25,110 nt of DNA from a virus. Its lineage: Duplodnaviria > Heunggongvirae > Uroviricota > Caudoviricetes. Positions 699 to 24,614 of this stretch are shown one piece after another (position 1 is the stretch's first letter; each line of letters opens with the position of its first letter). Under the pieces are notes generated by a model, which did no database searches, was not told where the DNA came from, and worked only from the letters and a program-made list of their open reading frames with translations. The stretch lies in the IMG/VR virus record IMGVR_UViG_2648501787_000018; one strand, given 5' to 3'. The position numbers were made by a program, and so were the translations under genes.

Positions 699-998
699 TC
701 ATTTCTGCTCTCTCCACGCGGCAATCATGTTTTTCAGTTCCTGTAGTTTTTTATCAACATCCATACATGACACATGGTTATTTCTGGAAAGCGGGATTTC
801 CCGCCTGAATCTGCTAATAAAGATCTCCACGTTCAGCGAACTATGAAATGAATAGCCATCACGAATAAAATACACACGGTCAAACATCAGTTCTTTTACC
901 GTTACTCTGTTACCGTTCTTATCCAGATAAATAGCGCCGGGGATAATTTTGGGGTGTGCATAACCGCTGGCAGTCAAGCCAGATAAATATGTTCTCAT
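699..998 (-). CDS. Hypothetical protein (99 aa), island replication/regulation operon
   Basis: Track ORF with ATG start, same strand and tight spacing with flanking genes. No recognisable motif. Confidence 0.4.
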   Translation of the reverse strand: MRTYLSGLTASGYAHPKIIPGAIYLDKNGNRVTVKELMFDRVYFIRDGYSFHSSLNVEIFISRFRREIPLSRNNHVSCMDVDKKLQELKNMIAAWREQK

Positions 999-1004
999 GA
1001 TTAT

Positions 1005-1325
1005 TTATCCCCGATTTGAATCAGTATTCGCTTTCTTTATGGCATTTAATGCATCTGTGGCATTTTCAATGGTGCACCGTAACGAAATATCAAACTGCCC
1101 AAGCATTGCCAGTAACAAACCGATATTACCCATATCAATGCGCATAGCCTTTTCGTCATAGTCCTCATTTTCTGACGCATGCCACATCAGGCTACCAATT
1201 GACGCAACAGCCATTGATATATTGTCAGTAGCCCCATCCGCAGCGGAATAAACCTTTTTAGCAATATCATGCTCACAGTTAAAATGCGGATTAATCAGGT
1301 ACTGGTAATTTGACATATCAGGCAT
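1005..1325 (-). CDS. Hypothetical protein (106 aa)
   Basis: Track ORF; its ATG (1325-1323) sits 3 nt from the upstream gene's stop (1320-1318), suggesting co-translation. No recognisable motif. Confidence 0.4.
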   Translation of the reverse strand: MPDMSNYQYLINPHFNCEHDIAKKVYSAADGATDNISMAVASIGSLMWHASENEDYDEKAMRIDMGNIGLLLAMLGQFDISLRCTIENATDALNAIKKANTDSNRG

Positions 1326-1520
1326 GGCATACCCCCTGACGAATACGGGCGGCGAATACCATCACGCAGCCAGCCGGGGATTGCTGGCGTGCTTCCTGTT
1401 CGCTGCTGGCCTCAATGGTAATCACGCGCGGTTGTGCCGTGCTCAGGGCGATAAAACGCCAGATGTATTTATTCAGGTTGTGCGAATCCCGCCCTTGCGG
1501 GTGTGTGGTATGATTTCTCA
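1318..1520 (-). CDS. Hypothetical small protein (about 67 aa)
   Basis: Internal ATG at 1520-1518 preceded by GAGG about 7 nt upstream; the longer track ORF (to 1632) has no better start signal. Function unknown. Confidence 0.35.
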
Positions 1521-1729
1521 TAGCTACCTCGATACTGTTGCTATCGTTGGTGGTTAGAAGCCCGTTGGTGTTCCTAGCACCTTCGGGCTTTGCTTTTTTA
1601 AGTGCCTCCGTGTTAAGGTGGCCACCTAACAATGAAAAGGCTAATTCAATAGGTGGTCACTTGTCAACGATCAAACGCGATAAAAGTCCTAAGGGTGATG
1701 GGCAATCTCCACAATTCAGAATGCGAATT

Positions 1730-1879: not shown

Positions 1880-2236
1880 ATGAAATACGAATTCTTCGCA
1901 ACAAGTAGCAGTAGTTTGGATGTATACATAGTCACTGTATCAAACGATTCTGGCTCGCTAATCATGACTTGTAATTGTCCAGCAGGAAGTAAAGGTATTC
2001 TATGTAGACACCGTAAAGCTTTAATTACCGGAAAAATCCGCGGTATATTCACTCCCCCAAGAAGGAATAATCCTGAAAAATTACAAGAAGCTATGAATTT
2101 AATAGCCACATATGGCATAGATAAAACATTAAAGTTGTACACTGATGAGTTAGAACGAGCAGAACAGACTTGGATAAGTGTTCGCGATAATTTGAGAGCA
2201 ATGATAAACGCTCTTGTTGAACCACCTAAATATTGA
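1880..2236 (+). CDS. Hypothetical protein with SWIM-type zinc-finger-like motif (CxC-x9-CxH), 118 aa
   Basis: Strong RBS (AAGGAG) about 8 nt upstream of ATG 1880; AT-rich coding sequence; motif TCNCPAGSKGILCRH matches the CxCxnCxH SWIM pattern. No family recognised beyond the motif. Confidence 0.45.
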   Translation: MKYEFFATSSSSLDVYIVTVSNDSGSLIMTCNCPAGSKGILCRHRKALITGKIRGIFTPPRRNNPEKLQEAMNLIATYGIDKTLKLYTDELERAEQTWISVRDNLRAMINALVEPPKY

Positions 2237-2308: not shown

Positions 2309-2338
2309 GGCGACCGCCCCAGGTCGCCTTTGTTTTGT
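2309..2338 (+). terminator. Rho-independent terminator downstream of the RHH/SWIM gene pair
   Basis: Inverted repeat GGCGACC-gcccca-GGTCGCC followed by TTTGTTTTGT. Confidence 0.4.
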
Positions 2339-2919
2339 CACTGAATGCGGTTACCAAAGTAAAACTCAGGCTGATATTCACGTATCAGCCTTTTTTCTTC
2401 TTCCTCCAGCTCACGCTTTTTGCGCTTACATGCCTGTAGCTCCCTCCCCTTCTCGCTGGCACTTATTTGATATTGCTCTTTACGGCGGGAAAAATCCTGT
2501 AATGCACCCCACGGGATACCATAAGCCCCCGTTTTTCTGATACCTGGTATCACATTCCTGAATACCCAGTTACTGAAACGATGGGCGAACGTGCCAGGAG
2601 TAACAGCTTTGCGACTTCTGGCGATCAGCTTGTAAAAACCAGATTCAGAAACGACGCTATGATTTGGATTTCCGCGAATACCGTAGCTTAAAGCGACGGT
2701 ATTCTTCTCATCCACATCCAGAGCTTTTAGAGCATCGCGTGAGTTGCTTATTTCCAGAGCTTCACAAACATCCTTTGCAACAAACCACGGATCGCCGTTC
2801 AGATACACCACACGAACATCCACGCCATCAAAGCGCAGAACGACAAGATCACGAATATCGCAGAATTTTTTTACTGAACGAGCGTACCCCTTGCCCGTCA
2901 CGGCAATATTTTTATTCAT
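2338..2919 (-). CDS. BRO-N domain protein (phage antirepressor-like)
   Basis: VRVVYLNGDPWFVAKDVCEALEISNSRDALKALDVDEK ... SGFYKLIARSRK ... FSNWVFRNVIPGIRKTGAYG matches the conserved Bro-N domain pattern. GAGG RBS 8 nt upstream of ATG 2919. Confidence 0.75.
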   Translation of the reverse strand: MNKNIAVTGKGYARSVKKFCDIRDLVVLRFDGVDVRVVYLNGDPWFVAKDVCEALEISNSRDALKALDVDEKNTVALSYGIRGNPNHSVVSESGFYKLIARSRKAVTPGTFAHRFSNWVFRNVIPGIRKTGAYGIPWGALQDFSRRKEQYQISASEKGRELQACKRKKRELEEEEKRLIREYQPEFYFGNRIQ

Positions 2920-2977: not shown

Positions 2978-3181
2978 TTAGTGGGGATTGGCCTGTTCTC
3001 GTTGTTTATCTAACCATGCATCTACATCTCTACGGTGCCAGGTATGCCGCCGCCCAATTCTGAACGGTTGAGGAAAACCATTATTTTCATCTTTCCAGAA
3101 ATTGATGAATGCGCTCATTGCCCCATAGCGCAAAATTTTCATTACGTCTTTAGTAAATAAAATATCTTCATTGGTATTCAT
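2978..3181 (-). CDS. alpA: AlpA/excisionase-family HTH transcriptional regulator (67 aa)
   Basis: Small HTH protein immediately downstream of the integrase; ...GFPQPFRIGRRHTWHRRDVDAWL fits the AlpA/Xis (HTH_17) pattern FP.P.R.G.R..W...DV..WL. Confidence 0.7.
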   Translation of the reverse strand: MNTNEDILFTKDVMKILRYGAMSAFINFWKDENNGFPQPFRIGRRHTWHRRDVDAWLDKQREQANPH

Positions 3182-3193
3182 TTGCTGAACTCC

Positions 3194-4432
3194 TCAACCA
3201 TTTACTATTCTCAAACCTTTCTTACCACCGGATCTATTAATTACCCCTTTTCTCGCCTCATCAAAAAAATCTCCTACCCATTGCATCATAATTTTGCGTT
3301 GTTCTAAATAAGTAGTTCTATTATAAATATCTCTTATTTTATCACCACTTTTATGTGCTAATGCAGCCTCAATAACATCAGGGTTAAAACCCTCCTCATT
3401 TAAAAGCGTACTCCACATCGAACGAAAACCGTGTAACGTTACAATCCCTTTGAACTTGCTGGCAGCAATTGGGGTATTGATAGTATTCTTTCCCATAGGA
3501 GCATCTTTTGTTCTGGAGGAAAAAAATATATAACGCCCTCTTTTTATTTTCTGCATTGTTCTTAGGATTCTAATAGCCTGTGATGAGAGAGGCACAACAT
3601 GTTCACGATGGCATTTCATTTTATGCGCGGGGATAATCCACAAGCCAGAATCAAAATCAATCTCGGACCACTCTGCTTTAATCGCCTCACCTGGCCTGAC
3701 CATTGTCAATATCTGGAATAAAAGTGCATTGTGAGCTATTTGATACTTATGAGGCACACTATCCCACCAACTCAGAAATTCAGGCAATCTTTCAACAGGT
3801 AGTGCAGCTAATGATTTATTTTTCTTTCCTGTGAATGCAGTTTTTATCTTAAGTAATGGATTCGTTTTCAATGCTCCACAATTTACAGCGTAATTCATAA
3901 TTTCATTTAATCTTGATATTAATTTTTTTTGCAACGCATTCTTATCGGATACGGCATCCAGAGCATTAATAGCTACTGGCGCTGTAATTTTCTCTATGCT
4001 GTACTTACCAAAGAAAGGAACAAGATATTTGTATACTTCATATTCGATATTATACAGCGTAGGTTTCCGCAATTCCGATCCCTTTTTAAAAGCGATCCAT
4101 GCATTAGCAACAGCTTCAAATGTTTGTAGATTTTTTAGTGACATCTCAATTTTACGATTTTTCTTCTCTGTCACTGGATCAACTCCACGTGCAATCATTC
4201 GCCGAAGTTCATCACGTATTTCCCGTGCTTCCGCGAGTGAGAATTCAGGAAAACGCCCTATCGTGTATGTCTGCCGTTTCTTCGTTATCGGATGGCTATA
4301 ACGGAAACGCCACACTTTCCCACCAGCTTTACTCACATTCAGCAATAAACCGAACCCATCATAAACGGCATAGTCCTTTTCACGTGGTTTCATTCCCTTA
4401 ACTTCAGTCACGGTTAATGGCTTTACCGGCAT
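3194..4432 (-). CDS. int: Tyrosine site-specific integrase, P4/IntS-like
   Basis: 412 aa. N-terminal arm-binding region (KPREKDYAVYDGFGLLLNVSKAGGKVWRFRY) and C-terminal catalytic residues (HGFRSMWST ... IRDIYNRTTY) typical of P4-type integrases. Confidence 0.9.
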   Translation of the reverse strand: MPVKPLTVTEVKGMKPREKDYAVYDGFGLLLNVSKAGGKVWRFRYSHPITKKRQTYTIGRFPEFSLAEAREIRDELRRMIARGVDPVTEKKNRKIEMSLKNLQTFEAVANAWIAFKKGSELRKPTLYNIEYEVYKYLVPFFGKYSIEKITAPVAINALDAVSDKNALQKKLISRLNEIMNYAVNCGALKTNPLLKIKTAFTGKKNKSLAALPVERLPEFLSWWDSVPHKYQIAHNALLFQILTMVRPGEAIKAEWSEIDFDSGLWIIPAHKMKCHREHVVPLSSQAIRILRTMQKIKRGRYIFFSSRTKDAPMGKNTINTPIAASKFKGIVTLHGFRSMWSTLLNEEGFNPDVIEAALAHKSGDKIRDIYNRTTYLEQRKIMMQWVGDFFDEARKGVINRSGGKKGLRIVNG

Positions 4433-4593
4433 CTATCGCCCTCATTTTTTAGTCCGTCATGTAGTCCTTTCAAGTCGATAACAAGCGATAAACTAACTCA
4501 TTATCAAGTAAAGAGAGGAAACACAAAAAATCACAACTCATTGAAAAGACTACAAAACGACACCAGAACATAAAAACAGGTAAGAAATGTACC

Positions 4594-5589
4594 CTACATC
4601 CAGAATGACGCAATACGTGAGCGTCGGGGATCACCATAACGACTGCCATCCGCATTGATGGATTCACCATCCCGCAACCAGACCCCACGTCCGTTCAGCT
4701 CACGTTTTTGTTCAGGCATAATCCGTCCTGAACAGGAAGGACACTGAATATAAGCCGCCTCACTTGCCAGCACAGGATCGGCAATATCACGGAAACCAGC
4801 AACCACATCGCCGCAGGGCTGAAAATACTCACCACAGTGTGGGCAGGGCCAGTACCAGCGACGTCGATCGCCACGGTTATAGAGTGACAGTATCCCCGTG
4901 GTTGGTGGAGCCTCATGCGGTGAAGTCCGTCGCCATTTCACATCCTTCACATCCCTGCCGGGGGAACTCTCCACCAGCGTCATACCACTGGACATAAATG
5001 TGGTGGTACGTTTTGAGGCAAGAGAGAAGGCATCCCCCTCGCCATCAATATCTTCCGGAAAACGGTCATAATCCGTCAGCGCCACGCATTTATAATCTGA
5101 TGAGGACATGATATTGACTGACGGCCAGCCGATTTTCAGGTAGTTGCCAGCAAGGAATGTTCTGTCATAAACGTTGTTGTCATTTTTGTTCGGACTCAGG
5201 CGACTGACCACTTCCGGGCTGACGCGAAACGTTCTGGCAAGTCGTTTTTTGGAGTGTTCGCGGGCTTTTTCCTCCGTCATCTGAATGATCAGCATATCCG
5301 CAGGATCGCAAATCACGTTGTAAATCACCCAGCCGTCAATCAGGCCGATAGTCTTGCCGGTTCGTGCCGGACCAACAAATATCACTGCGTCGTATTCACG
5401 CGAGGCCAGGCAGTTCATCGGCTCAATAACATACGGTGCCACCAGCGGATCCCACGGGACTGAGTTCCCTGCCCCCATGGGCACCCGCATATACTGAGCA
5501 ACGGCATCAGCAACCCGCATTCGTCTCGGTGCGCGAAGGATATAACCTGAATCGGTTCGTGCTGCCTTTGCGGTTTCCTGATTCAGCAT
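4594..5589 (-). pseudogene. Terminase large subunit, GpA family, truncated to the N-terminal 331 codons
   Basis: Walker A-like GPARTGKT and zinc-finger region WPCPHCGEYFQP ... CPSCSG as in lambda gpA (about 640 aa). The frame ends at ...RIASFWM well before the nuclease domain, followed by AT-rich island sequence. Start overlaps the Nu1-like stop (TAATG). Confidence 0.65.
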
Positions 5590-6083
5590 TACTCCTCCTG
5601 CTGTAATTCCTCCTCATCATCCGCACCTGCTTCGGTCACCCGCAGGGCTATCTGATCGCGCAGATCATCAATAATGGACTGAACACGGCTCACAGCGGCA
5701 GGCTGCAGACCGCAGTCACGTTCCAGAATATCCGGTAATGTTTCCAGTACCTGCACGACCGCTTTTGCCCAGATGGCAAACTCCCGTCTGACATCACTGG
5801 CCGGAATGAGTTGTGCCGTTTCCTGTTCGAACTTAAGACGCTCACGTTCAGACTGATACCAGGCTTTGCGCTCATGCGCGTCCATTTCGCCTTCTGCAAC
5901 CGGCGGTGGTAATGCCAGAAATGCCGACACAATATCAACCACCCGATAAAGCTTGAGGTTGCTTTCATGCCCCCCTGCAACGGGTAGATTTTGCAGCCTT
6001 GCCGCAGCAGTCTGGCGATGTACACCTGACAGTGCCGCCAGTTGACTGATATTCAGCGTCAGATTTTTTAACTCTTGATCCAT
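5589..6083 (-). CDS. Terminase small subunit, Nu1-like
   Basis: 164 aa; N-terminal HTH (LNISQLAALSGVHRQTAAARLQN) and position immediately upstream of gpA as in lambda Nu1. GGAG RBS 7 nt upstream of ATG 6083. Confidence 0.8.
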   Translation of the reverse strand: MDQELKNLTLNISQLAALSGVHRQTAAARLQNLPVAGGHESNLKLYRVVDIVSAFLALPPPVAEGEMDAHERKAWYQSERERLKFEQETAQLIPASDVRREFAIWAKAVVQVLETLPDILERDCGLQPAAVSRVQSIIDDLRDQIALRVTEAGADDEEELQQEE

Positions 6084-6099
6084 ACCCGCTCCAGAATGT

Positions 6100-6285
6100 T
6101 TTAAACATGCATCTTGCGAACAACTTTAGGCAAACGGTGTTAGTGATGAACAAAAAACAATCAAAATCGACACCATAAAAATAAAACTAATGCAATATCA
6201 ATGCATTACAGTAGTGGTGATGACGAATGAAATTTCAAAAACTAGCCTTTTTCCGCGCCGCTCCCGCCCCGTGGCAGGCCACCCC
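6100..6285 (-). other. Putative cos region (cosN about 6253-6275, cosB between it and the Nu1-like start)
   Basis: About 180 bp upstream of the Nu1-like start, the minus strand reads GGGGCGGGAGCGGCGCGGAAAAAGG, resembling the lambda cosN region (GGGCGGCGACCTCGCGGGTTTTCGC), followed by an AT-rich stretch with a 7-bp inverted repeat TAATGCA/TGCATTA. Exact nick sites cannot be set from sequence. Confidence 0.45.
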
Positions 6286-6536
6286 ACCGGAAGGACCCGC
6301 CAAAATGAGAGTGATTATCACCATTGCTGATGAATAAATTGATGAAAATCATTGAAACGCCTTTCAGCAAGATAACGGCGACGGTCGTTGTTGAACTCCG
6401 TAACTCTGCTACTAAGGTTAAAAGCATGGCCATCTTTTGCCACCGGCAAATCTTCAATGGATTTCCCCTGCCGGTTTTTTATTCCTCACATTATCGCAGC
6501 CCCTCAGTGAAGGGCTGCTGTAATGCCTGCTGTTAC

Positions 6537-6920
6537 TCAGTAACGACCGCGCCTTCCGGTAATTTCATACCGGCAAATACCGGACAGCCCGGGGATCGTT
6601 ATCTGCAGCTGGTTAGCCAGGGAGTTAATCTCAGCGACCAACACTGGCTTCGTATAGCGCCATGCCGCCAGCCCTTGTCCACAGAAGCTCGCCATATCTT
6701 TTTTCTGATCAAACTCATGACACTTCATATTGAGCTGCGCACTTAAGCTGTTGCGATGCTGAAGTTCTCCGGTGAAGTAGTCATCCAGGACTTTATAGGC
6801 TGCATATTTAAATCCGGGGTTTAGCCATGCTGCATAATCATAAGCAACAAACTTCCCGCCATATGTTCCACCGTGTACACCGCGCTCAGTAAAAACCACA
6901 GATTCGTGTTTTTTCTCCAT
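6537..6920 (-). CDS. Hypothetical protein (127 aa) with KilA-N-like motif, directly downstream of Rz
   Basis: GGTYGGKFVAYDYAAWLNPGFKYAAYKVL resembles the KilA-N core (compare [25 protein letters not shown] in the 269-aa protein at 12039-12848), but the N-terminal half of the domain seems absent. Confidence 0.4.
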   Translation of the reverse strand: MEKKHESVVFTERGVHGGTYGGKFVAYDYAAWLNPGFKYAAYKVLDDYFTGELQHRNSLSAQLNMKCHEFDQKKDMASFCGQGLAAWRYTKPVLVAEINSLANQLQITIPGLSGICRYEITGRRGRY

Positions 6921-7388
6921 CTACTTAATGCGCTGGGTGCGGATATATTCCTGCGCCCCTTCCAGTTGCTTCTGCATCGTCATCAACCGTTCTCTGAGGG
7001 TGAAATAATCCCGTTCAGCGGTGTCTGCCAGTCGGGGGCTGGTTGCATTATCCATGCTGGTGGGTCCGGTGGCTTCACGCACGGCTGCGGAGCAACTGGC
7101 ATTGACCCGCAGGCGCTTACGACCAGCGGCAACATCAGCGCGCAGAGTTTCATTTTCAGTTTTCGCATCGGCTAACTCCTTCGTGTATTTTGCATCGATC
7201 GCAGCAACATCACGCTGACGCTGCTGCATGTCAGCGATGGTGGCGGTCGCCTGCTTCAGCTCACTGACTTTTTTATCACGCTGTTCTTTGTAGGCGATGG
7301 CGTTATCACGGTAATGATTAACAGCCCATGACAGGCAGGCGATGATACAAATAACCAGAGCGGAGATAATCGCGGTTACTCTGCTCAT
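6921..7388 (-). CDS. Rz: i-spanin Rz
   Basis: [16 protein letters not shown]...[13 protein letters not shown]...[16 protein letters not shown]...MQKQLEG is near-identical to lambda Rz as I recall it. Confidence 0.9.
6983..7168 (-). CDS. Rz1: o-spanin Rz1 (lipoprotein, embedded in Rz in the +1 frame)
   Basis: [22 protein letters not shown]...[32 protein letters not shown]: lipobox LVVSAC and proline-rich segment match lambda Rz1; fully nested in Rz. Confidence 0.85.
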
Positions 7389-8276: not shown

Positions 8277-9329
8277 TTATTTCCCCACCAGTTCACTTAC
8301 CTCTTTCACCGTCTGATTAAACCGCTCTGACTCAAGTTCAACACCTAACGCCCGACGCCCCAGCGCCATTGCTGCTTTTATTGTGGAACCGGATCCCATA
8401 AAGAAATCAGCAACCAGATCACCAGGGCGACTACTGGCATTGATTATTTGCCGGAGCATATCCGCCGGTTTCTCGCACGGATGTTTACCCGGGTAGAACT
8501 GAACGGGTTTATGCGTCCAGACATCGGTATAAGGCACGGAGACTGATACGGAGAAATAGCGCCGGAGAGATTTAAACTCATCCAGCAATTCAGAATATTT
8601 GCGATTCAGTGAATCATAAGATGCCACCAGCTGGTGGTGTGGTTGTTCCAGTTGTTGTTCCTGAAACTTCTCTGCCGCTATACGGGAAAACAGTGCCTGT
8701 AACTTCCGATAGTCAGCCTCATTCGGCAACTGCCACTGACTGGCACCAAACCAGTGGGAAACCATATTTTTCTTACCTGTGGCTTCGGCAATTTGTTTTG
8801 CCGTTATACCCAGTTCGGCACGAGCATCCCTGAAATACGATATCAGCGGTGCCATTATGTGCTGTTTGAGTTCCCTTTCTTTTGCTGCATAGCCGTCACT
8901 TTTGCCGCGATATGGCCCCTGGTAATGTTCAGCAAACAGAACGCGCTCTGTGGCAGGAAAATATGCGCGCAGACTTTCTTTATTACACCCATTCCAACGT
9001 CCGGACGGCTTCGCCCAGATGATATGGTTAAGCACGTTGAAACGTTCACGCATCATGATCTCAATATCAGATGCCAGGCGATGCCCACAGAACAGATAAA
9101 GGCTTCCGGCAGGTTTTAACACCCGCCAGAACTGGGCCAGACAGTGGTCCAGCCACTTAAGGTAATCTTCGTCCCCTTTCCACTGATTGTCCCAACCGTT
9201 GGGTTTCACCTTGAAGTACGGCGGATCGGTAACAATCAGGTCAATGGAATCATCAGGCAGGGACTGAATAAAATGCAGGCAATCAGCGTTGATTAAATCA
9301 ACACTGTTTATTTTTACAGTATTTTTCAT
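8277..9329 (-). CDS. DNA methyltransferase, beta-class amino-MTase (N6-adenine or N4-cytosine), orphan
   Basis: 350 aa; catalytic motif IV (IVTDPPYF) near the N-terminus and AdoMet motif I (ADFFMGSGST) near the C-terminus, the beta-class order. No restriction endonuclease gene adjacent. Confidence 0.8.
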   Translation of the reverse strand: MKNTVKINSVDLINADCLHFIQSLPDDSIDLIVTDPPYFKVKPNGWDNQWKGDEDYLKWLDHCLAQFWRVLKPAGSLYLFCGHRLASDIEIMMRERFNVLNHIIWAKPSGRWNGCNKESLRAYFPATERVLFAEHYQGPYRGKSDGYAAKERELKQHIMAPLISYFRDARAELGITAKQIAEATGKKNMVSHWFGASQWQLPNEADYRKLQALFSRIAAEKFQEQQLEQPHHQLVASYDSLNRKYSELLDEFKSLRRYFSVSVSVPYTDVWTHKPVQFYPGKHPCEKPADMLRQIINASSRPGDLVADFFMGSGSTIKAAMALGRRALGVELESERFNQTVKEVSELVGK

Positions 9330-9959: not shown

Positions 9960-10577
9960 TCAATTATCTTCCAGGCCGGATGCTATCAACGAAAGTCTCT
10001 CAAAAAACGCTGTAGCAGCCTTGTCCAAAGTTGAATAAGTACTGTATTCTCCGTGTTCGGGACCAACCACTACCCATGGTCGTCTTTTTGGGATTCGGGA
10101 TTTCTCAGAAATCACTGTTCCAGATATACCAATATCAATTGTTACACCTGTTATTATTTTCTCTTCATCTCTTTCCCTGAACTCAATTGCCATAAATGCC
10201 GTTTTTTTTCGTTTCCCGTTTTTAAAAAAATCAAATAAAGCAAAGCGATGCTCATTAAAATCAACACCCCATCGTCCTTCAGGATAAAGGGCATGAAAGT
10301 TGTCATTTACGCTCTGCATCGTCTCATAAGCTTTAACTTCTAAATCTCCATAGTGCATAGATACCGCGCAGGAGTTACTGGGTAACTGTATTTTCCCAAG
10401 ATTGAAAACCTTTACTGCTCCAGAACTATGGCATCTTGCCCGCAACTTATCCCCATTTATACTAATCGGAGAAATATTCCTTAATGTTCCGGGCTGGCTC
10501 CCTCCTAAGTAAACGACTGTTAAAGATTGCTTATTTTCAATTGCATCAACTAATACATGCTCTACATTTTTATCCAT
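9960..10577 (-). CDS. Hypothetical protein (about 205 aa) with WYL-like N-terminal motif; AT-rich moron between Q and the lysis genes
   Basis: Best start is ATG 10577-10575 with GGGAGG 6 nt upstream; the track's upstream ATG at 10604 lacks an RBS. LTVVYLGGSQPGTLRNISPISINGDKLRARCHSSGAVKVFNLGKIQL resembles the WYL-domain pattern (Y...R.i.P..l....a.c....F.L..I). C-terminal 120 aa unrecognised. Confidence 0.5.
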   Translation of the reverse strand: MDKNVEHVLVDAIENKQSLTVVYLGGSQPGTLRNISPISINGDKLRARCHSSGAVKVFNLGKIQLPSNSCAVSMHYGDLEVKAYETMQSVNDNFHALYPEGRWGVDFNEHRFALFDFFKNGKRKKTAFMAIEFRERDEEKIITGVTIDIGISGTVISEKSRIPKRRPWVVVGPEHGEYSTYSTLDKAATAFFERLSLIASGLEDN

Positions 10578-10652
10578 AATAACCTCCCAATGAACAGGTA
10601 TCATCAGGAGGTTATTATAAAATATGATTATTTACTTTGATTGAATTTATTA
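10578..10652 (-). promoter_or_regulatory. Putative late promoter (pR'-like) region immediately downstream of Q
   Basis: Minus strand contains TATAAT with an upstream TTCAAT at about 20 bp spacing; position matches lambda pR'. Not a strong consensus. Confidence 0.3.
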
Positions 10653-13257: not shown

Positions 13258-13580
13258 ACTTTCAGGCCCCTCTCATGTAACCAGTGGGCTGCACGCAACC
13301 TGGCGCTCTCCTCACTGGCAAGCAGTGCGCGGATGATACCGACCGCTTCGCTGTCGTCGTCCTTCACTGCGGTATGAAGCGTGATCCCCCGGGCCACGCC
13401 ACGCTTTATCGTGATGACGCCTTTTTTCTCCAGTGCGCGAAGATGCTCCACCGCTGCATTCACTGAACGGTATCCCAGCATGGTTGCCACCTCCTGATTG
13501 GTTGGCGGAAAGCCACGCTCTTGCTGGTAAGAAATCAGCATATCCAGCACCTGCTGCTGGCATTGAGTTAACGTCGTCAT
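13254..13580 (-). CDS. LexA DNA-binding-domain-only protein (no S24 peptidase domain)
   Basis: LTQCQQQVLDMLISYQQERGFPPTNQEVATMLGYRSVNAAVEHLRALEKKGVI parallels the LexA N-terminal winged HTH; the protein ends after about 108 aa with no Ser/Lys protease motifs. Confidence 0.7.
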   Translation of the reverse strand: MTTLTQCQQQVLDMLISYQQERGFPPTNQEVATMLGYRSVNAAVEHLRALEKKGVITIKRGVARGITLHTAVKDDDSEAVGIIRALLASEESARLRAAHWLHERGLKV

Positions 13581-14230
13581 GCCGCCATCTCCCTGACAAG
13601 TTTTTCTGCCTGCTGGCGAACCTGCGCCAGAAACGCCTCACCACATGCCTCAAGTTCATCGCGCCCGATGTAGCTGATTGCCGGTCCCTTCCAGGTCTTG
13701 TCGAAAACAGCAATAGCACCAGCGAAGAAAGCGCCTGTCGGCACCTGCTTCTCGTCCTTCGGGATAAACCAGGCTGGCAGTTCAAAACCAATACGCCCGC
13801 GAATAAAAGCAATATGGTCTGCATCTTCCGGCCACCACACTTCGCTGGTGGCAGCTTTGATCAGGAAAACATAGCGCCCGCCTTTATCACGCATAGCACT
13901 GGCATGTTTCATGATGTAACGCATGCCGGTGATGTATTGCCCCTCATGCTGACTGGCGCGGCTGTACGGGGGATTACCAAAGGCAGCACCTTTAAGCTCC
14001 GCAAGACGTTCTGACCAGTCATGCGCCAGCGCGTTGTCTTCCGCAGTGTAATAAGCGGCACATTTGGCGTTATCACCATCAGTAAACAGATCCAGAACAA
14101 ACGGGCCAAACAGGGTGTTAATTCCCCAGAAAATGTTGTCCGGCGTGCGCCACTGATCGCCCACTTCCTTCAGTTCATGGGCTGGTTTGTTCCGCAACTC
14201 CACCAGCGCCTGGCAATATTTATTACTCAT
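13577..14230 (-). CDS. Phage N6-adenine DNA methyltransferase (phage Dam family)
   Basis: DQWRTPDNIF ... AFGNPPYS motifs. ATG at 14230-14228 overlaps the upstream stop (TAATG); the track's longer start at 14263 would overlap the upstream gene. Confidence 0.8.
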   Translation of the reverse strand: MSNKYCQALVELRNKPAHELKEVGDQWRTPDNIFWGINTLFGPFVLDLFTDGDNAKCAAYYTAEDNALAHDWSERLAELKGAAFGNPPYSRASQHEGQYITGMRYIMKHASAMRDKGGRYVFLIKAATSEVWWPEDADHIAFIRGRIGFELPAWFIPKDEKQVPTGAFFAGAIAVFDKTWKGPAISYIGRDELEACGEAFLAQVRQQAEKLVREMAA

Positions 14231-14718
14231 TAAGCCCCCACGTAATTCCCTGACAGATACCACTCTTCACCCGATACAGCGCGCTTGCTGCTTTTCCGTA
14301 AACACCGCTCACGACGCGCAAGAAAATTGTTTCGCTCTTGCTGGGAGTGGCTTTCACGGAATGCCGCCATCCACACCGTTGCAGCACGACGGTATAAGCC
14401 CCTGGACTCCAGTTCTTCCGCCAGGCGGGTCAGGCACAAAATCACCCGGGGATCGTTAGTGCCGACATAGAAATTGCGCACAGGTCTGGATTCACGAACT
14501 GGTTGCGGTTCCGGCTCCTGCGGTATCTCAGTCAGCCGCGGGAAATTTCTGCGTGTATCCCCTTCACAACGGTGAGCCACACGCCCACTCTGACGTAACT
14601 TGCTTGCTGACTGCAGAACGCGCTGTCGTGAGTAACCTGCAAAAGCATCCGCAATGTCTCCGGAAGTACATCCCGGATGGGCTTCAATGAATTTCTGAAC
14701 GTCATTCAAAAGACTCAT
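14230..14718 (-). CDS. Putative PerC/ANR-like transcriptional regulator (tentative)
   Basis: N-terminal HTH-like segment and LAEELESRGLYRRAATVWMAAF, reminiscent of PerC-family phage regulators. Assignment from memory, low certainty. Confidence 0.4.
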   Translation of the reverse strand: MSLLNDVQKFIEAHPGCTSGDIADAFAGYSRQRVLQSASKLRQSGRVAHRCEGDTRRNFPRLTEIPQEPEPQPVRESRPVRNFYVGTNDPRVILCLTRLAEELESRGLYRRAATVWMAAFRESHSQQERNNFLARRERCLRKSSKRAVSGEEWYLSGNYVGA

Positions 14719-15539: not shown

Positions 15540-15760
15540 GCAGCACCTCCGAGATGCTTCATGTTTTTTCCGGAGCGAAAGGCTATAAGCGGCATACTGA
15601 CGCGGTAATTACGGCCCAGCGGTTCACAAACCACCTTCTGACATTCACGGTCAACCAGGCTAACACGTAGAACATGCCCTGCAGGCGTGGTGTACCACTG
15701 ACCCGGACGAGGACAACGGAAAGTCTGATTGGTAAAACGTTTGAAAATATTCCGGATCAT
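15536..15760 (-). CDS. Hypothetical small protein (74 aa)
   Basis: Track ORF; both ends overlap neighbours in ATGA fashion, consistent with a real co-translated gene. No motif recognised. Confidence 0.4.
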   Translation of the reverse strand: MIRNIFKRFTNQTFRCPRPGQWYTTPAGHVLRVSLVDRECQKVVCEPLGRNYRVSMPLIAFRSGKNMKHLGGAA

Positions 15761-16302
15761 TTGCGCCCCCTTACCTCTGAAGAGTTCAGCGACGAATGAA
15801 TAAGACGGGCAAGAAATGCCGCATCGTTAATTCGGTCATACAGACTTACAGCCAGCGGTGATTCAGCTTTTTCCAGCATGGGATAAAGCTGCTGCAACCA
15901 GACCTGATGAATTGATGAAATGTAGGAATAGAGAACGCTGGCGTTATGTGCAACGTCGCTCGGTACAGAGGGCTTTGAAAGCTGTTTCTCCATCTGGTTA
16001 AAGGCATTGATGTATGCCTCTTTGAACTGGGCAGCACGTTTACCCGTGAAACCCATAGCAAGAAACGCAAAGCCATCGCGGGTTATTTGATAGCAAGGTA
16101 GTTTGCGGCCTGAAGCGTCGATATAACCACTTAACACAAAATTGTGTTCAGCAAATTCAGCGGAGCATTCAAGGTTTCGAATTCTATCTAAAACCCGCTC
16201 ATGCCGTTTAGTAAAGTAGTTAGCAACTGCAAGAGATGTAGTGACAGCACGACCATTGATGATCGTGATTTCAGGGTGAACAAAGGTTGGGATCGTAGCC
16301 AT
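15757..16302 (-). CDS. Rha-family phage regulatory protein (about 181 aa); the same frame stays open upstream to 16905
   Basis: ITIINGRAVTTSLAVANYFTKRHERVLDRIRNL ... YQITRDGFAFLAMGFTGKRAAQFKEAYINAFNQME matches the Rha domain. ATG at 16302-16300 has GAGG 8 nt upstream. The track ORF (382 aa) adds 201 upstream codons of atypical composition. Confidence 0.7.
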   Translation of the reverse strand: MATIPTFVHPEITIINGRAVTTSLAVANYFTKRHERVLDRIRNLECSAEFAEHNFVLSGYIDASGRKLPCYQITRDGFAFLAMGFTGKRAAQFKEAYINAFNQMEKQLSKPSVPSDVAHNASVLYSYISSIHQVWLQQLYPMLEKAESPLAVSLYDRINDAAFLARLIHSSLNSSEVRGRK

Positions 16303-16901
16303 AATGGCAGCCTCGGTAGCAAGCTTAAAAAACTCACCACATAAGACGCCAATCATAGAGGTGGTGAGACGTACAGAGTTGGCGTTACCGGCGGCTACCC
16401 TTACCGGCGCATCTTGCGATGCCCCTGTACGCCCCACCATAATTTGGGCGTGACAAAATAATGCGTACAAAAAAACCGCATCTACGCGGTTGTACGCGGT
16501 AGCCTTCTCCAGGACGCCAATCCCGGCACCCGCTTTATAAGGTGCCTGAACAGTGTAACGTCCCGGAATGGCAGAATCAATGTGCTGGTGGTCCTTCACA
16601 CTCAACAAAATCACGCCTGAATTTCCACAAAGGACTAAAGCACTCATGCGGGTAGTCTTTGCGAAGATAGATAACGCGCTGTGTTTCTGGCTCCCAACGA
16701 ATAACATGGACATAAAGCCCTCTTCCGTCACGAAACCAGCGGTTAAGTTCCTGCACAACTCGCCCCCCACAGTCAGGTAAAGTTCTCTGTGGTTACTTAC
16801 AGCCAGGTGATTTGGTAATCTGCATTCATGCCGTAACAACAGGTGTTCAGCGACACTGACCACCAGCTGTTGCGACAAACGGTTATTTGCCGTTAAACTG
16901 T

Positions 16902-17453
16902 TCATGCGTTAGTTTCTCCACAGACACAAAACGCCACGACGCCCGGAGCTGCACACTCGCGGGCGTCACTCTTTTCTGGAGCGCAGAAGATTTTGTAGAC
17001 CAGTGCTGCATGTTCCTGGAGCTTCGAAATTGACAGATACAACTCATCATTAATTGCTGTCTGCTCGTGTGGCTCCACGACCCCATCTTCGATTGCCGAA
17101 CGAATCTGCTTTGAGTAATTCCCGATCTGTTCGATGACTTCCAGCAGGCGCTGGTTTATATCGGCGTTCTCTACTTCCTCAATTTCAGGAAGCGATACGA
17201 ACACCCCACCAGCAGACTGTGCGACAGCATCCGCAATGTAGTGAGTGCCAGCCGCGCGCTGTAAAACCATTGCCCATCCCAGCGGGAAAATCTGATCGCC
17301 ATCTGCACGAAGGCGGTTGAATAAAGCGTTCTCTGTTACATCCAGCCAGTCAGCAGCTTCAGCGTAACCCCCAGGCAATGCCGCGATAGTTTTTCTGACA
17401 GCTTTCACGTGCCACTCAGGTTGTTTTTCCACTTTCCAGTGATGCTTACCCAC
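16902..17453 (-). CDS. CII-like phage regulatory protein (tentative, Phage_CP76-like)
   Basis: 183 aa, directly downstream of the cro-like gene in the cII position; GTG start with AGGAGG 6 nt upstream. Family from memory, moderate certainty. Confidence 0.55.
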   Translation of the reverse strand: MGKHHWKVEKQPEWHVKAVRKTIAALPGGYAEAADWLDVTENALFNRLRADGDQIFPLGWAMVLQRAAGTHYIADAVAQSAGGVFVSLPEIEEVENADINQRLLEVIEQIGNYSKQIRSAIEDGVVEPHEQTAINDELYLSISKLQEHAALVYKIFCAPEKSDARECAAPGVVAFCVCGETNA

Positions 17454-24045: not shown

Positions 24046-24075
24046 ATAACCCGTATATGTACGGGTTATTTTTCT
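24046..24075. terminator. Terminator between convergent operons
   Basis: ATAACCCGTA-tatg-TACGGGTTAT followed by TTTTTC on the plus strand; overlaps the stop codon of the minus-strand gene. Confidence 0.55.
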
Positions 24076-24614
24076 TTATCACTATCTTTTCTTGATTTGA
24101 ACAATCCACTAACAACGAAACCAACCAAACCAACAATACTAATTGTACTTGTACCTAGTAATGCAACGATCGCTTCAACTGGAGGCTTTCCTTCATGTGC
24201 AATAAGAAACGATGTAAACATTGCGACAACGAATAAGCACCAACACGACATAAACCAAACCGTGAATGAGGCCATTTTTGTCCGAAGCTCATTGTCTATT
24301 TCTTTACCAGTTGCGTCAGCTATCTTATCCCGTACTTGTGATTTGAGCATATCAAGCTGAGCTTGAAGACTGTCCATTCTGTTCTGCTGCATAAACTCAT
24401 GCAATGCACCAGTATTAGAACCAAACTCTTCTGCCTCCAGAATAGCTTTATTTTCTGAAGAAGAATCATCGTCGCTCTCATGATTAGACGGCTCAAATGC
24501 AGATTTAAAAACCTGTTCTTGACTGTCAGTAGAGTTTAAGGATGCTTCAGAGCGACCATTTTCAACACCTGCGGCCGCTCCGATAAGTTTATAGATATCT
24601 GAATTGTGAGACAT
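24066..24614 (-). CDS. Hypothetical membrane protein (182 aa): acidic N-terminal region, two C-terminal TM helices; candidate toxin/effector partner of the upstream Panacea protein
   Basis: ATG 24614 with AGGGA upstream, 22 nt after the upstream gene's stop. TM segments FTVWFMSCWCLFVVAMFTSFLIA and AIVALLGTSTISIVGLVGFVVSGLF; AT-rich. Confidence 0.5.
   Translation of the reverse strand: MSHNSDIYKLIGAAAGVENGRSEASLNSTDSQEQVFKSAFEPSNHESDDDSSSENKAILEAEEFGSNTGALHEFMQQNRMDSLQAQLDMLKSQVRDKIADATGKEIDNELRTKMASFTVWFMSCWCLFVVAMFTSFLIAHEGKPPVEAIVALLGTSTISIVGLVGFVVSGLFKSRKDSDKEK

Follow-up and report, generated by a model that had tools for sequence, protein, structure and literature searches.

Predicted lambda-type cos site beside a large-terminase gene apparently split by an embedded satellite in a lambdoid prophage

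When a prophage carries a cohesive-end packaging site (cos) and a complete small-terminase gene beside a large-terminase gene that stops halfway, has it decayed, or has something been inserted into it? We addressed this question for a 25,110-nucleotide stretch, hereafter the window, of the IMG/VR record IMGVR_UViG_2648501787_000018 (Caudoviricetes), in which a G-rich candidate cos element, the gene for the small terminase subunit (terS, product TerS) and the 5' part of a gene for a large terminase subunit (terL, product TerL) of the gpA type follow one another. All genes around the cos site and the terminases are on the minus strand; strands are given between brackets. The reading we favour, with a probability of about 0.8, is that the window holds part of a lambdoid prophage with a working cos site, and that gpA is split by an embedded satellite of approximately 10.6 kb, of the phage-inducible chromosomal island (PICI) type, which excises to rebuild gpA.

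The cos site and the small terminase

Read downward from 6320, the minus strand (GGCGGGTCCTTCCGGTGGGGTGGCCTGCCACGGGGCGGGAGCGGCGCGGAAAAAGGC) has the layout GGGTCCT-N22-CG-GGGCGGGAGCGG-CG, to be compared with GGGTCCT-N23-CG-GGGCGGCGACCT-CG in lambda; for this comparison both lambda ends were fetched and the alignment was anchored on the lambda nick. Three parts can be recognized: i) a cosQ-like heptamer GGGTCCT (6292-6298(-)), located 29 bp upstream of the predicted top-strand nick and identical at 7/7 positions to lambda bp 48473-48479; ii) cosN with its flanking CGs (6256-6271(-)), which by the nick-anchored alignment contains a predicted 12-nt 5' cohesive end GGGCGGGAGCGG (6269-6258), the length and 5' polarity of this overhang being presumed by analogy with lambda; and iii) a cosB-like AT-rich interval (6084-6257(-)) that matches lambda cosB in position and length. 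The GC content is 80% in the G-rich block versus 36% in the 174 bp between cosN and the terS start codon. The 20-mer ACGGGGCGGGAGCGGCGCGG (6272-6253(-)) is present as a single copy in the window (chance expectation 0.00), and the combined cosQ-cosN pattern was found once when both strands of the window were scanned. The ATG of the small-terminase gene (6083) is at bp 187 from the predicted end and the start of lambda Nu1 at bp 191.

The cosB-like interval also contains the only match in the 25-kb window to the consensus of integration host factor (IHF; WATCAANNNNTTR). This I1-like site (TATCAATGCATTA, 6196-6208(+), bp 62-74 from the predicted end) is found where lambda has I1, and its TAATnnnnTTGATA motif is retained across sequence changes in the relatives. 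Around 1.4 matches are expected by chance per 25 kb, and the odds for one within the 190-bp cos interval are roughly 1 in 100. A box GTCATCACCACTA (6212-6224(-), bp 46-58) has the position of lambda R3, which is bp 50-65 (PMC9026076), and is a tentative TerS binding site. Together with the R2- and R1-like boxes (6177-6166 and 6151-6136) it has only a heptamer in common; TCATCAC is shared by the R3-like box and the box at 6151-6136, and an inverted TGGTG is found at 6175.

We then compared the element with 31 related sites, 17 in helper prophages and 14 in satellites. The heptamer GGGTCCT, a spacing of 28-31 bp, GGGCGG and the flanking CGs were invariant in 31/31 sites, even where the surrounding DNA was unrelated. 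The left half of cosN was constant and the right half varied, and cosB fell into classes (those of the mEp460-type and the cdtI-type relatives) while cosQ and cosN remained constant. This resembles what has been reported for lambda-like cos sites, which vary in cosB and the right cosN half but conserve cosQ, the left half of cosN and the CGs on either side (PMC4669245; PMC9026076). The segment at bp 44-58 occurred in discrete forms, TCGTCATCACCAC in the window and GGCGGCGGCAGCA in the cdtI-type phages, as would be expected of an element (cosB/R3) that determines packaging specificity.

Phages phi458, mEp460 and Ayreon match the window at 98-99% identity over cos, terS and the 5' part of gpA. 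In these three phages, and in cdtI and Tritos as well, gpA is uninterrupted, unlike in the window; cdtI and Tritos moreover differ in having another cosB class and a longer TerS of the DUF1441 family. The cdtI record (AB285204) opens exactly at the predicted nick base, ending with ...GGCCTGCCACG (...CCACG) and starting with GGGCGGGAGCGT, and the Tritos record (OV696610) has the same start and end, at the homologous GGGCGG. The record starts of Ayreon and mEp460 are arbitrary, at terS (PMC5764929), and are of no use as evidence for the ends. With the cos sites of lambda and its group (21, phi80, N15 and Gifsy-1; Feiss and colleagues) the element shares the cosQ heptamer, the left half of the 12-nt end, the CG flanks, an IHF site in cosB, a cosN approximately 190 bp upstream of the small-terminase start and a large terminase of the gpA family. 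It differs from lambda in the end's right half (5/6 positions), in a cosQ that is 1 bp nearer to the nick, in an unrelated cosB, and in the small terminase.

Several points count against this assignment or limit it. Our literature search yielded no published end-mapping for the mEp460/cdtI phage group, and the ends given here are predictions from sequence; the record starts of cdtI and Tritos may have been mapped experimentally or set by analogy with lambda. The linear record of mEp460_4F5 (LR595868.1, L003/L004) has its start 5 nt leftward of the predicted nick, and its cohesive-end sequence misses 3 nt that all relatives have; this offset and gap are probably an assembly artefact at cos. A repeat search of the cosB interval recovered no direct-repeat family, and for that reason the assignment of the R3-, R2- and R1-like boxes is weak and stays tentative. 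One could go further and read the G-rich element as no packaging site at all but as a GC-rich patch, as a piece of the open reading frame (ORF) 6242-6457(-), or as a regulatory hairpin upstream of the terminase genes. The annotation of a hypothetical protein across the element in some phage records would fit this, as would the predicted nature of the ends. We nevertheless consider it extremely improbable, given the match with lambda at cosQ, the left half of cosN and the CG flanks with the same spacing, the invariance of the block in helper and satellite copies that have unrelated flanks, the two phage records that open exactly at the element, and the gpA-family terminase next to it. Because of the identity with lambda at cosQ, the left half of cosN and the CG flanks, the near-identical spacing to terS, the record starts, the IHF site and the conservation over 31 sites, the sequence strongly supports that 6298-6084(-) is a genuine lambda-type cos site (cosQ-cosN-cosB), belonging to a lambdoid prophage from the mEp460/cdtI group. 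As such it provides a concrete prediction of the cohesive ends for this group of phages.

The gene that follows the cos site (5589-6083(-)) encodes an intact TerS of 164 aa, which matches a cluster with 660 members at 99% identity and is annotated as terminase small subunit in phi458, mEp460 and Ayreon. Its only Pfam match is DUF1441 and not Phage_Nu1, while lambda Nu1 itself matches PF07471. BLASTP detected no similarity between the protein and Nu1 (E = 20), and a sequence search of the PDB chains gave no match; its N-terminal winged helix corresponds best to the DNA-binding domain of a phage small terminase (PDB 6hn7_B). The protein is therefore not a Nu1 by sequence, but it does have a DNA-binding domain of the winged-helix type found in TerS proteins.

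The first-pass annotation, made from the sequence alone, had pointed to a lambda-cosN-like G-rich element about 180 bp upstream of the small-terminase start and had identified it as cos. The element is indeed there, 186 bp upstream, and the alignment with lambda agrees at cosQ (7/7), the left half of cosN, the CG flanks and the terS spacing. The same annotation spoke of an intact Nu1-like gene; intact it is, but it belongs to DUF1441.

The surroundings of the site are, in order, Rz (6921-7388), ORF11CD3 (6537-6920), cos, terS and the truncated gpA (gpA'), with cos at its usual place between the lysis and the terminase genes. The ORF 6242-6457(-), of 71 codons, overlaps cosQ and cosN and is unlikely to be a gene; several phage records label homologous stretches as 'hypothetical protein'. 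A terminator and promoter scan of 4300-7000 yielded nothing that exceeded the shuffle expectation.

The break in gpA and the inserted element

The gpA' gene (4594-5589(-)) comprises 331 codons and encodes the ATPase domain only (GpA_ATPase, E 1.5e-72); the nuclease domain is missing, as compared to the 700 aa of gpA in phi458 and JE86-ST05. Similarity to phage gpA genes ends at 4591. Exactly there the alignment of attL, attR and the intact gpA of phi458 places the attL core (4591-4603(-)), which consists of a crossover heptamer CTGGATG (4603-4597) and an imperfect extension TAGGGT. The TAG that closes the gpA' frame is supplied by the insert, and the GC content falls from 53% to 43% at the junction. 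Beyond the core are a satellite arm that appears to derive from attP (4433-4590(-)) and a P4-type tyrosine integrase gene of 412 codons that is co-oriented with gpA (3194-4432(-); domains Arm-DNA-bind_3, Phage_int_M and Phage_integrase; NCBIfam PRK09692-like). As the break coincides to the base with a recombinase crossover core and is followed by an integrase, the truncation is an insertion junction rather than an endpoint of decay: judging by the junction sequences, gpA is split after codon 331 by site-specific insertion and is not eroded.

The junctions read CTGGATGTAGGGT for attL and CTGGATGGAGGGT for both attR and attB, and the context of attR in the loci that carry the insert is ...CTTCTTCCTGGATGGAGGGTCC... 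In-silico joining of the two cores restores a 700-aa gpA, with the junction ...TTCTGGATGGAGGGTCC... (GCGTCATTCTGGATGGAGGGTCCGG), and leaves a circular satellite with the junction ...CTTCTTCCTGGATGTAGGGTACA... (TACTTCTTCCTGGATGTAGGGTACATT). The joined gpA frames of five further genomes with an identical integrase were open as far as the loci reach. Between the att core and the integrase start there is a doubled motif, TTATCGC-ttg-TTATCGA (4475-4491; TTATCGC at 4491-4485 and TTATCGA at 4481-4475). In the reconstructed attP, TTATCGC is found at -100 on the other arm (taken from the related locus L001) and the doubled copy at +109/+119 from the core centre; these copies are putative arm-type integrase sites.

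The window ends within the insert, and its continuation is known from sister loci in other genomes. The satellite part of the window is collinear with L001 20001-24797 (98.5% identity), and in E. coli EJN001 these 4.8 kb, at 98.5% identity, form the left portion of a 10,609-bp element. Beyond the part that is equivalent to the window, this element carries genes for SSB, a fusion of a ClpP protease and a major capsid protein, a second DUF1441 protein and a small ORF. After the element come the nuclease half of gpA that the window lacks and then portal, capsid and tail genes. The sister loci with enough flank all have this organization: an insert of approximately 10.6 kb, attR, the rest of gpA, and head and tail genes. 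That attR and the 3' half of gpA are also present in the genome from which the window derives is suggested by these sister genomes.

The insert is widespread within E. coli. Its integrase and arm were found in 90/5426 complete genomes (about 1.7%), with terL adjoining in nearly all of those listed, whereas about 1300 of the complete E. coli genomes have an uninterrupted gpA site. The carriers include the serotypes O157:H7, O145:H28, O121:H19, O111, O103 and O45, among which are serotypes of Shiga toxin-producing E. coli (STEC), for which the mobility of lambdoid prophages matters for the spread of toxin. All 23 of the 23 matches in IMG/VR were attL junctions, located behind at least five synonymous gpA alleles that all encode RIASFWM; the occurrence of one junction behind that many alleles implies repeated insertion at a single conserved codon block. 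Among public assemblies, 972 blocks contained the exact integrase protein, in each case with a DUF1441 gene 1.16 kb upstream of it, and the helpers in these blocks differed in their lysis and Q modules. A search for the attL/attP pattern in the GTDB species-representative genomes gave 0 matches. The closest integrase relatives in those representatives (≤41% identity) belong to unrelated taxa and are uninformative on the gpA target.

These data bear directly on the possibility that the prophage is a decayed remnant, which has kept cos and the small terminase, has lost the large terminase, and can be packaged only in trans by a co-resident cos phage. Such a remnant would look much like the window: cos and TerS intact, gpA reduced to 331 codons without a nuclease domain, no TerL from the prophage as long as the insert stays, and the far side of the insert outside the window. 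It would not, however, be expected to break exactly at a recombinase core that is followed by an integrase, and in each sister locus that reaches far enough, the insert is followed by the rest of gpA and the late genes. The junction shared by at least five gpA alleles further points to repeated site-specific insertion and not to a shared deletion. Nor is any other visible prophage gene damaged: the ORFs for an S24 cI-type repressor, cro, a CII-like protein, Rha/Ash, replication, Dam, RusA, KilA-N, DUF968, Q, a second methylase, holin, endolysin, Rz and TerS are all intact, and the only break is that of gpA at the att core. The rest of the visible prophage looks functional, and we regard decay as unlikely.

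The first-pass annotation had described the locus as a remnant with a broken terminase and had supposed that a cos phage in the same cell might mobilise it in trans. The gene is truncated in the window, with 331 instead of 700 aa, but at an att core and not by decay, and the term remnant does not hold, considering the intact neighbours and the gpA remainder and late genes in the sister genomes. Its general point that satellites exploit cos together with a small terminase proved relevant here; its view of the cos-terS stretch as the satellite-like part did not, since the satellite is the inserted element, which in the sister loci has its own cos sites, TerS and capsid gene. For annotation this means that a truncated terminase beside an intact cos and TerS need not indicate decay of the prophage; in the present case it is the sign of a nested satellite in a prophage that may have remained inducible.

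Satellite genes, excision and packaging

Downstream of the integrase gene, the satellite part of the window contains a 67-aa ORF at the position of AlpA/excisionase (2978-3181(-)), of which a RefSeq homologue is named 'helix-turn-helix transcriptional regulator', and further genes for Bro-N (2338-2919(-)), an Icd-like protein (1318-1632(-)), a hypothetical protein (1005-1325(-)), DUF4222 (699-998(-)) and the N-terminus of a D5-type primase (702-1(-)), the first 234 codons of which are open to the window edge. The complete gene order is int-HTH-Bro-Icd-DUF4222-primase-SSB-capsid-TerS, with HTH for the helix-turn-helix gene; from SSB onward it is known from the sister loci. In these loci the satellite TerS (DUF1441) is 67% identical to the helper TerS and the protease-capsid gene 57% identical to that of the helper. 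An ORF with a SWIM zinc finger (1880-2236(+)) is situated on the opposite strand in the Bro zone. The sister elements L119-L121 carry other genes there, so that this spot is a variable cargo position.

Two cos sites approximately 2.5 kb apart bracket the protease-capsid gene in every satellite that was seen with enough flank (26932-26951 and 29468-29487 in L001; also in L012, L015, L017, L022, L028 and L116-L121). One has a cdtI-type cosB and the second a TCGTCATCATCATC-type cosB, which is followed by the satellite's own TerS gene. Read from these loci outside the window, this arrangement suggests that gpA-type terminases differing in specificity may serve the satellite, which may also form capsids of its own. 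A 93-aa ORF located after the satellite TerS was considered as a decoy of the gpA N-terminus and was rejected, as it has no similarity.

We propose the following course of events. Late transcription from the Q-dependent promoter would run through the lysis genes, cos, terS and 5' gpA into the satellite, and with the satellite in place the prophage can produce no TerL. Upon induction the satellite integrase, probably with the product of the adjacent 67-aa ORF, would excise the satellite across the CTGGATG core, by which the intact gpA of 700 codons would be rebuilt. TerS and IHF, bound on cosB, would then position gpA to nick cosN and generate 12-nt 5' ends GGGCGGGAGCGG, and the restored terminase would package the helper from the prophage cos and the satellite from its own cos sites. 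The excision and its timing are presumed. Most likely, the prophage's own terminase would do the packaging after excision of the insert, so that trans-packaging would not be the only route. As long as the insert is in place, a co-resident phage with the matching cosB specificity may package the prophage in trans. The interruption of terL, rather than of a capsid or tail gene, would couple packaging of the helper DNA directly to excision of the satellite.

Three points weigh against this model of an excising satellite. The window ends in the satellite primase, so that attR, the remainder of gpA on its 3' side and the structural genes would lie outside it, and the sister loci that were examined are those of other genomes; the six loci with the identical integrase that were compared with the window all differ from it in sequence. 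The 67-aa ORF has no Pfam or NCBIfam match, and its role as putative excisionase is taken from its position only. An excised attP form was found neither in IMG/VR nor in an exact-pattern scan of the JGI metagenomes (0 matches). This last result would fit an insertion that is real but a dead end, in which the satellite no longer excises, the prophage is permanently crippled and cos is silent unless another phage supplies a terminase. The Icd-like gene is moreover annotated as a pseudogene in EJN001, and the study that described helper-embedded PICIs (HE-PICIs), i.e. PICIs that occupy a late gene of a prophage (Tommasini, Mageeney & Williams 2023, PMC10111431), recovered no infectious particles from its composite. 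The founding element of that study, Eco567.11capE (11capE), did excise precisely after induction, though (PMC10111431), and the integrase studied here is full length and present with its exact sequence in 972 assembly blocks with differing helper backgrounds. With both the attL and attR cores intact, and with insertions in at least five gpA alleles that show recent activity of the lineage, a dead end seems improbable to us, and an excising satellite remains our preferred reading.

Several further features of the surrounding prophage were recorded. Rfam matches above the gathering score were obtained for the C4 antisense RNA (16357-16444(-), 68 bits) and for isrK (16469-16545(-), 60 bits), both inside the Rha/Ash ORF (15757-16905(-)); this region looks like an antisense-RNA immunity module of the P1/P4 type in the early region of the helper. 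The prophage encodes two DNA methyltransferases, one with an N6_N4_Mtase domain between Q and the lysis genes (8277-9329(-)) and one of the Dam family in the nin-like region (13577-14263(-)). Two ORFs, 9960-10604(-) (214 aa) and 24066-24614(-) (182 aa), have no Pfam match, and the former has no NCBIfam match either. The 214-aa ORF is located between Q and the methylase, a position at which other helpers have cargo such as genes for an SDH protease or HEPN/GmrSD proteins.

Comparison with known remnants and satellites

A small-terminase gene and a cos-like region beside a truncated large-terminase gene are also seen in the terminase remnants of cryptic prophages, such as nohD/aaaD in DLP12 of E. 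coli K-12. These remnants are deletion products in visibly decayed prophages; in the locus studied here, the gene instead ends at an att core next to an integrase, and the sister genomes have the rest of it beyond the insert.

The satellite shares several properties with the Gram-negative PICIs of the EcCICFT073 type that encode Rpp (Fillol-Salom 2018/2019; Murialdo & Feiss 2022): these are cos-packaged, have the cosQ and cosN of the helper with a cosB of their own, and show the order int-alpA-primase. They are located at chromosomal sites, though, and redirect the helper TerS by means of the short Rpp that lacks the TerL-binding tail, whereas the satellite described here is situated in the terL gene of its helper and encodes a full-length TerS homologue.

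The closest resemblance is with the HE-PICIs. Like these, the element is a PICI of about 10-11 kb that occupies a lambdoid prophage's late gene in the orientation of that gene: attL lies within gpA, the int, Bro and primase genes are on the gpA strand, and the full composite is visible in the sister genomes. The order of the zones (integration, Bro, replication, late) and the presence of a diverged copy of a helper late gene are also shared, and the primases of a sister element and of 11capE are 87% identical. The integrase, in contrast, is only 25% identical to that of 11capE (85 bits; 3194-4432(-) versus L035 704-1939), which, set against the primase, argues for a swap of the integration module on a conserved PICI backbone. 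Other differences from the HE-PICIs are the gpA-family terL as target, an attP without the doubled arm motif TGTATTGC at -81/+132 and with TTATCGC/TTATCGA at -100 and +109/+119 instead, and, in the sister loci, a DUF1441 TerS and two cos sites of the satellite's own.

The HE-PICI survey kept only close relatives of its integrase, and its catalogue lists 14 sites, of which the terminase sites (gene A) are only Terminase_1:132 and :245 (PMC10111431). In the parts of its supplements that were available to us, neither the label 'GpA' nor the present core or arm sequence was matched, and a literature search for satellites integrated in a terminase gene returned only the work of Tommasini et al. The configuration is known, then, but this integrase lineage and the gpA target site appear to be uncatalogued. 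We treat the element as a variant of the HE-PICI kind outside the described clade, where membership of the integrase clade is judged by identity alone and a distant sister relation is possible. The helper-embedded satellites would hereby be extended to gpA-family terminases and to an integrase from outside the described clade, and this combination suggests that satellites came to embed themselves in helper late genes on more than one occasion.

We hypothesize an independent origin of this integrase lineage. In its full form, to which we give slightly less than even odds, the proposal is that a second integrase lineage independently evolved to target the RIASFWM/EG block of gpA-type terminases, holding the packaging enzyme hostage, and that the satellite's own TerS, its protease-capsid protein and two cosB classes would allow it to ride helpers of at least two specificities (mEp460-type and cdtI-type), among them prophages found in STEC serotypes.

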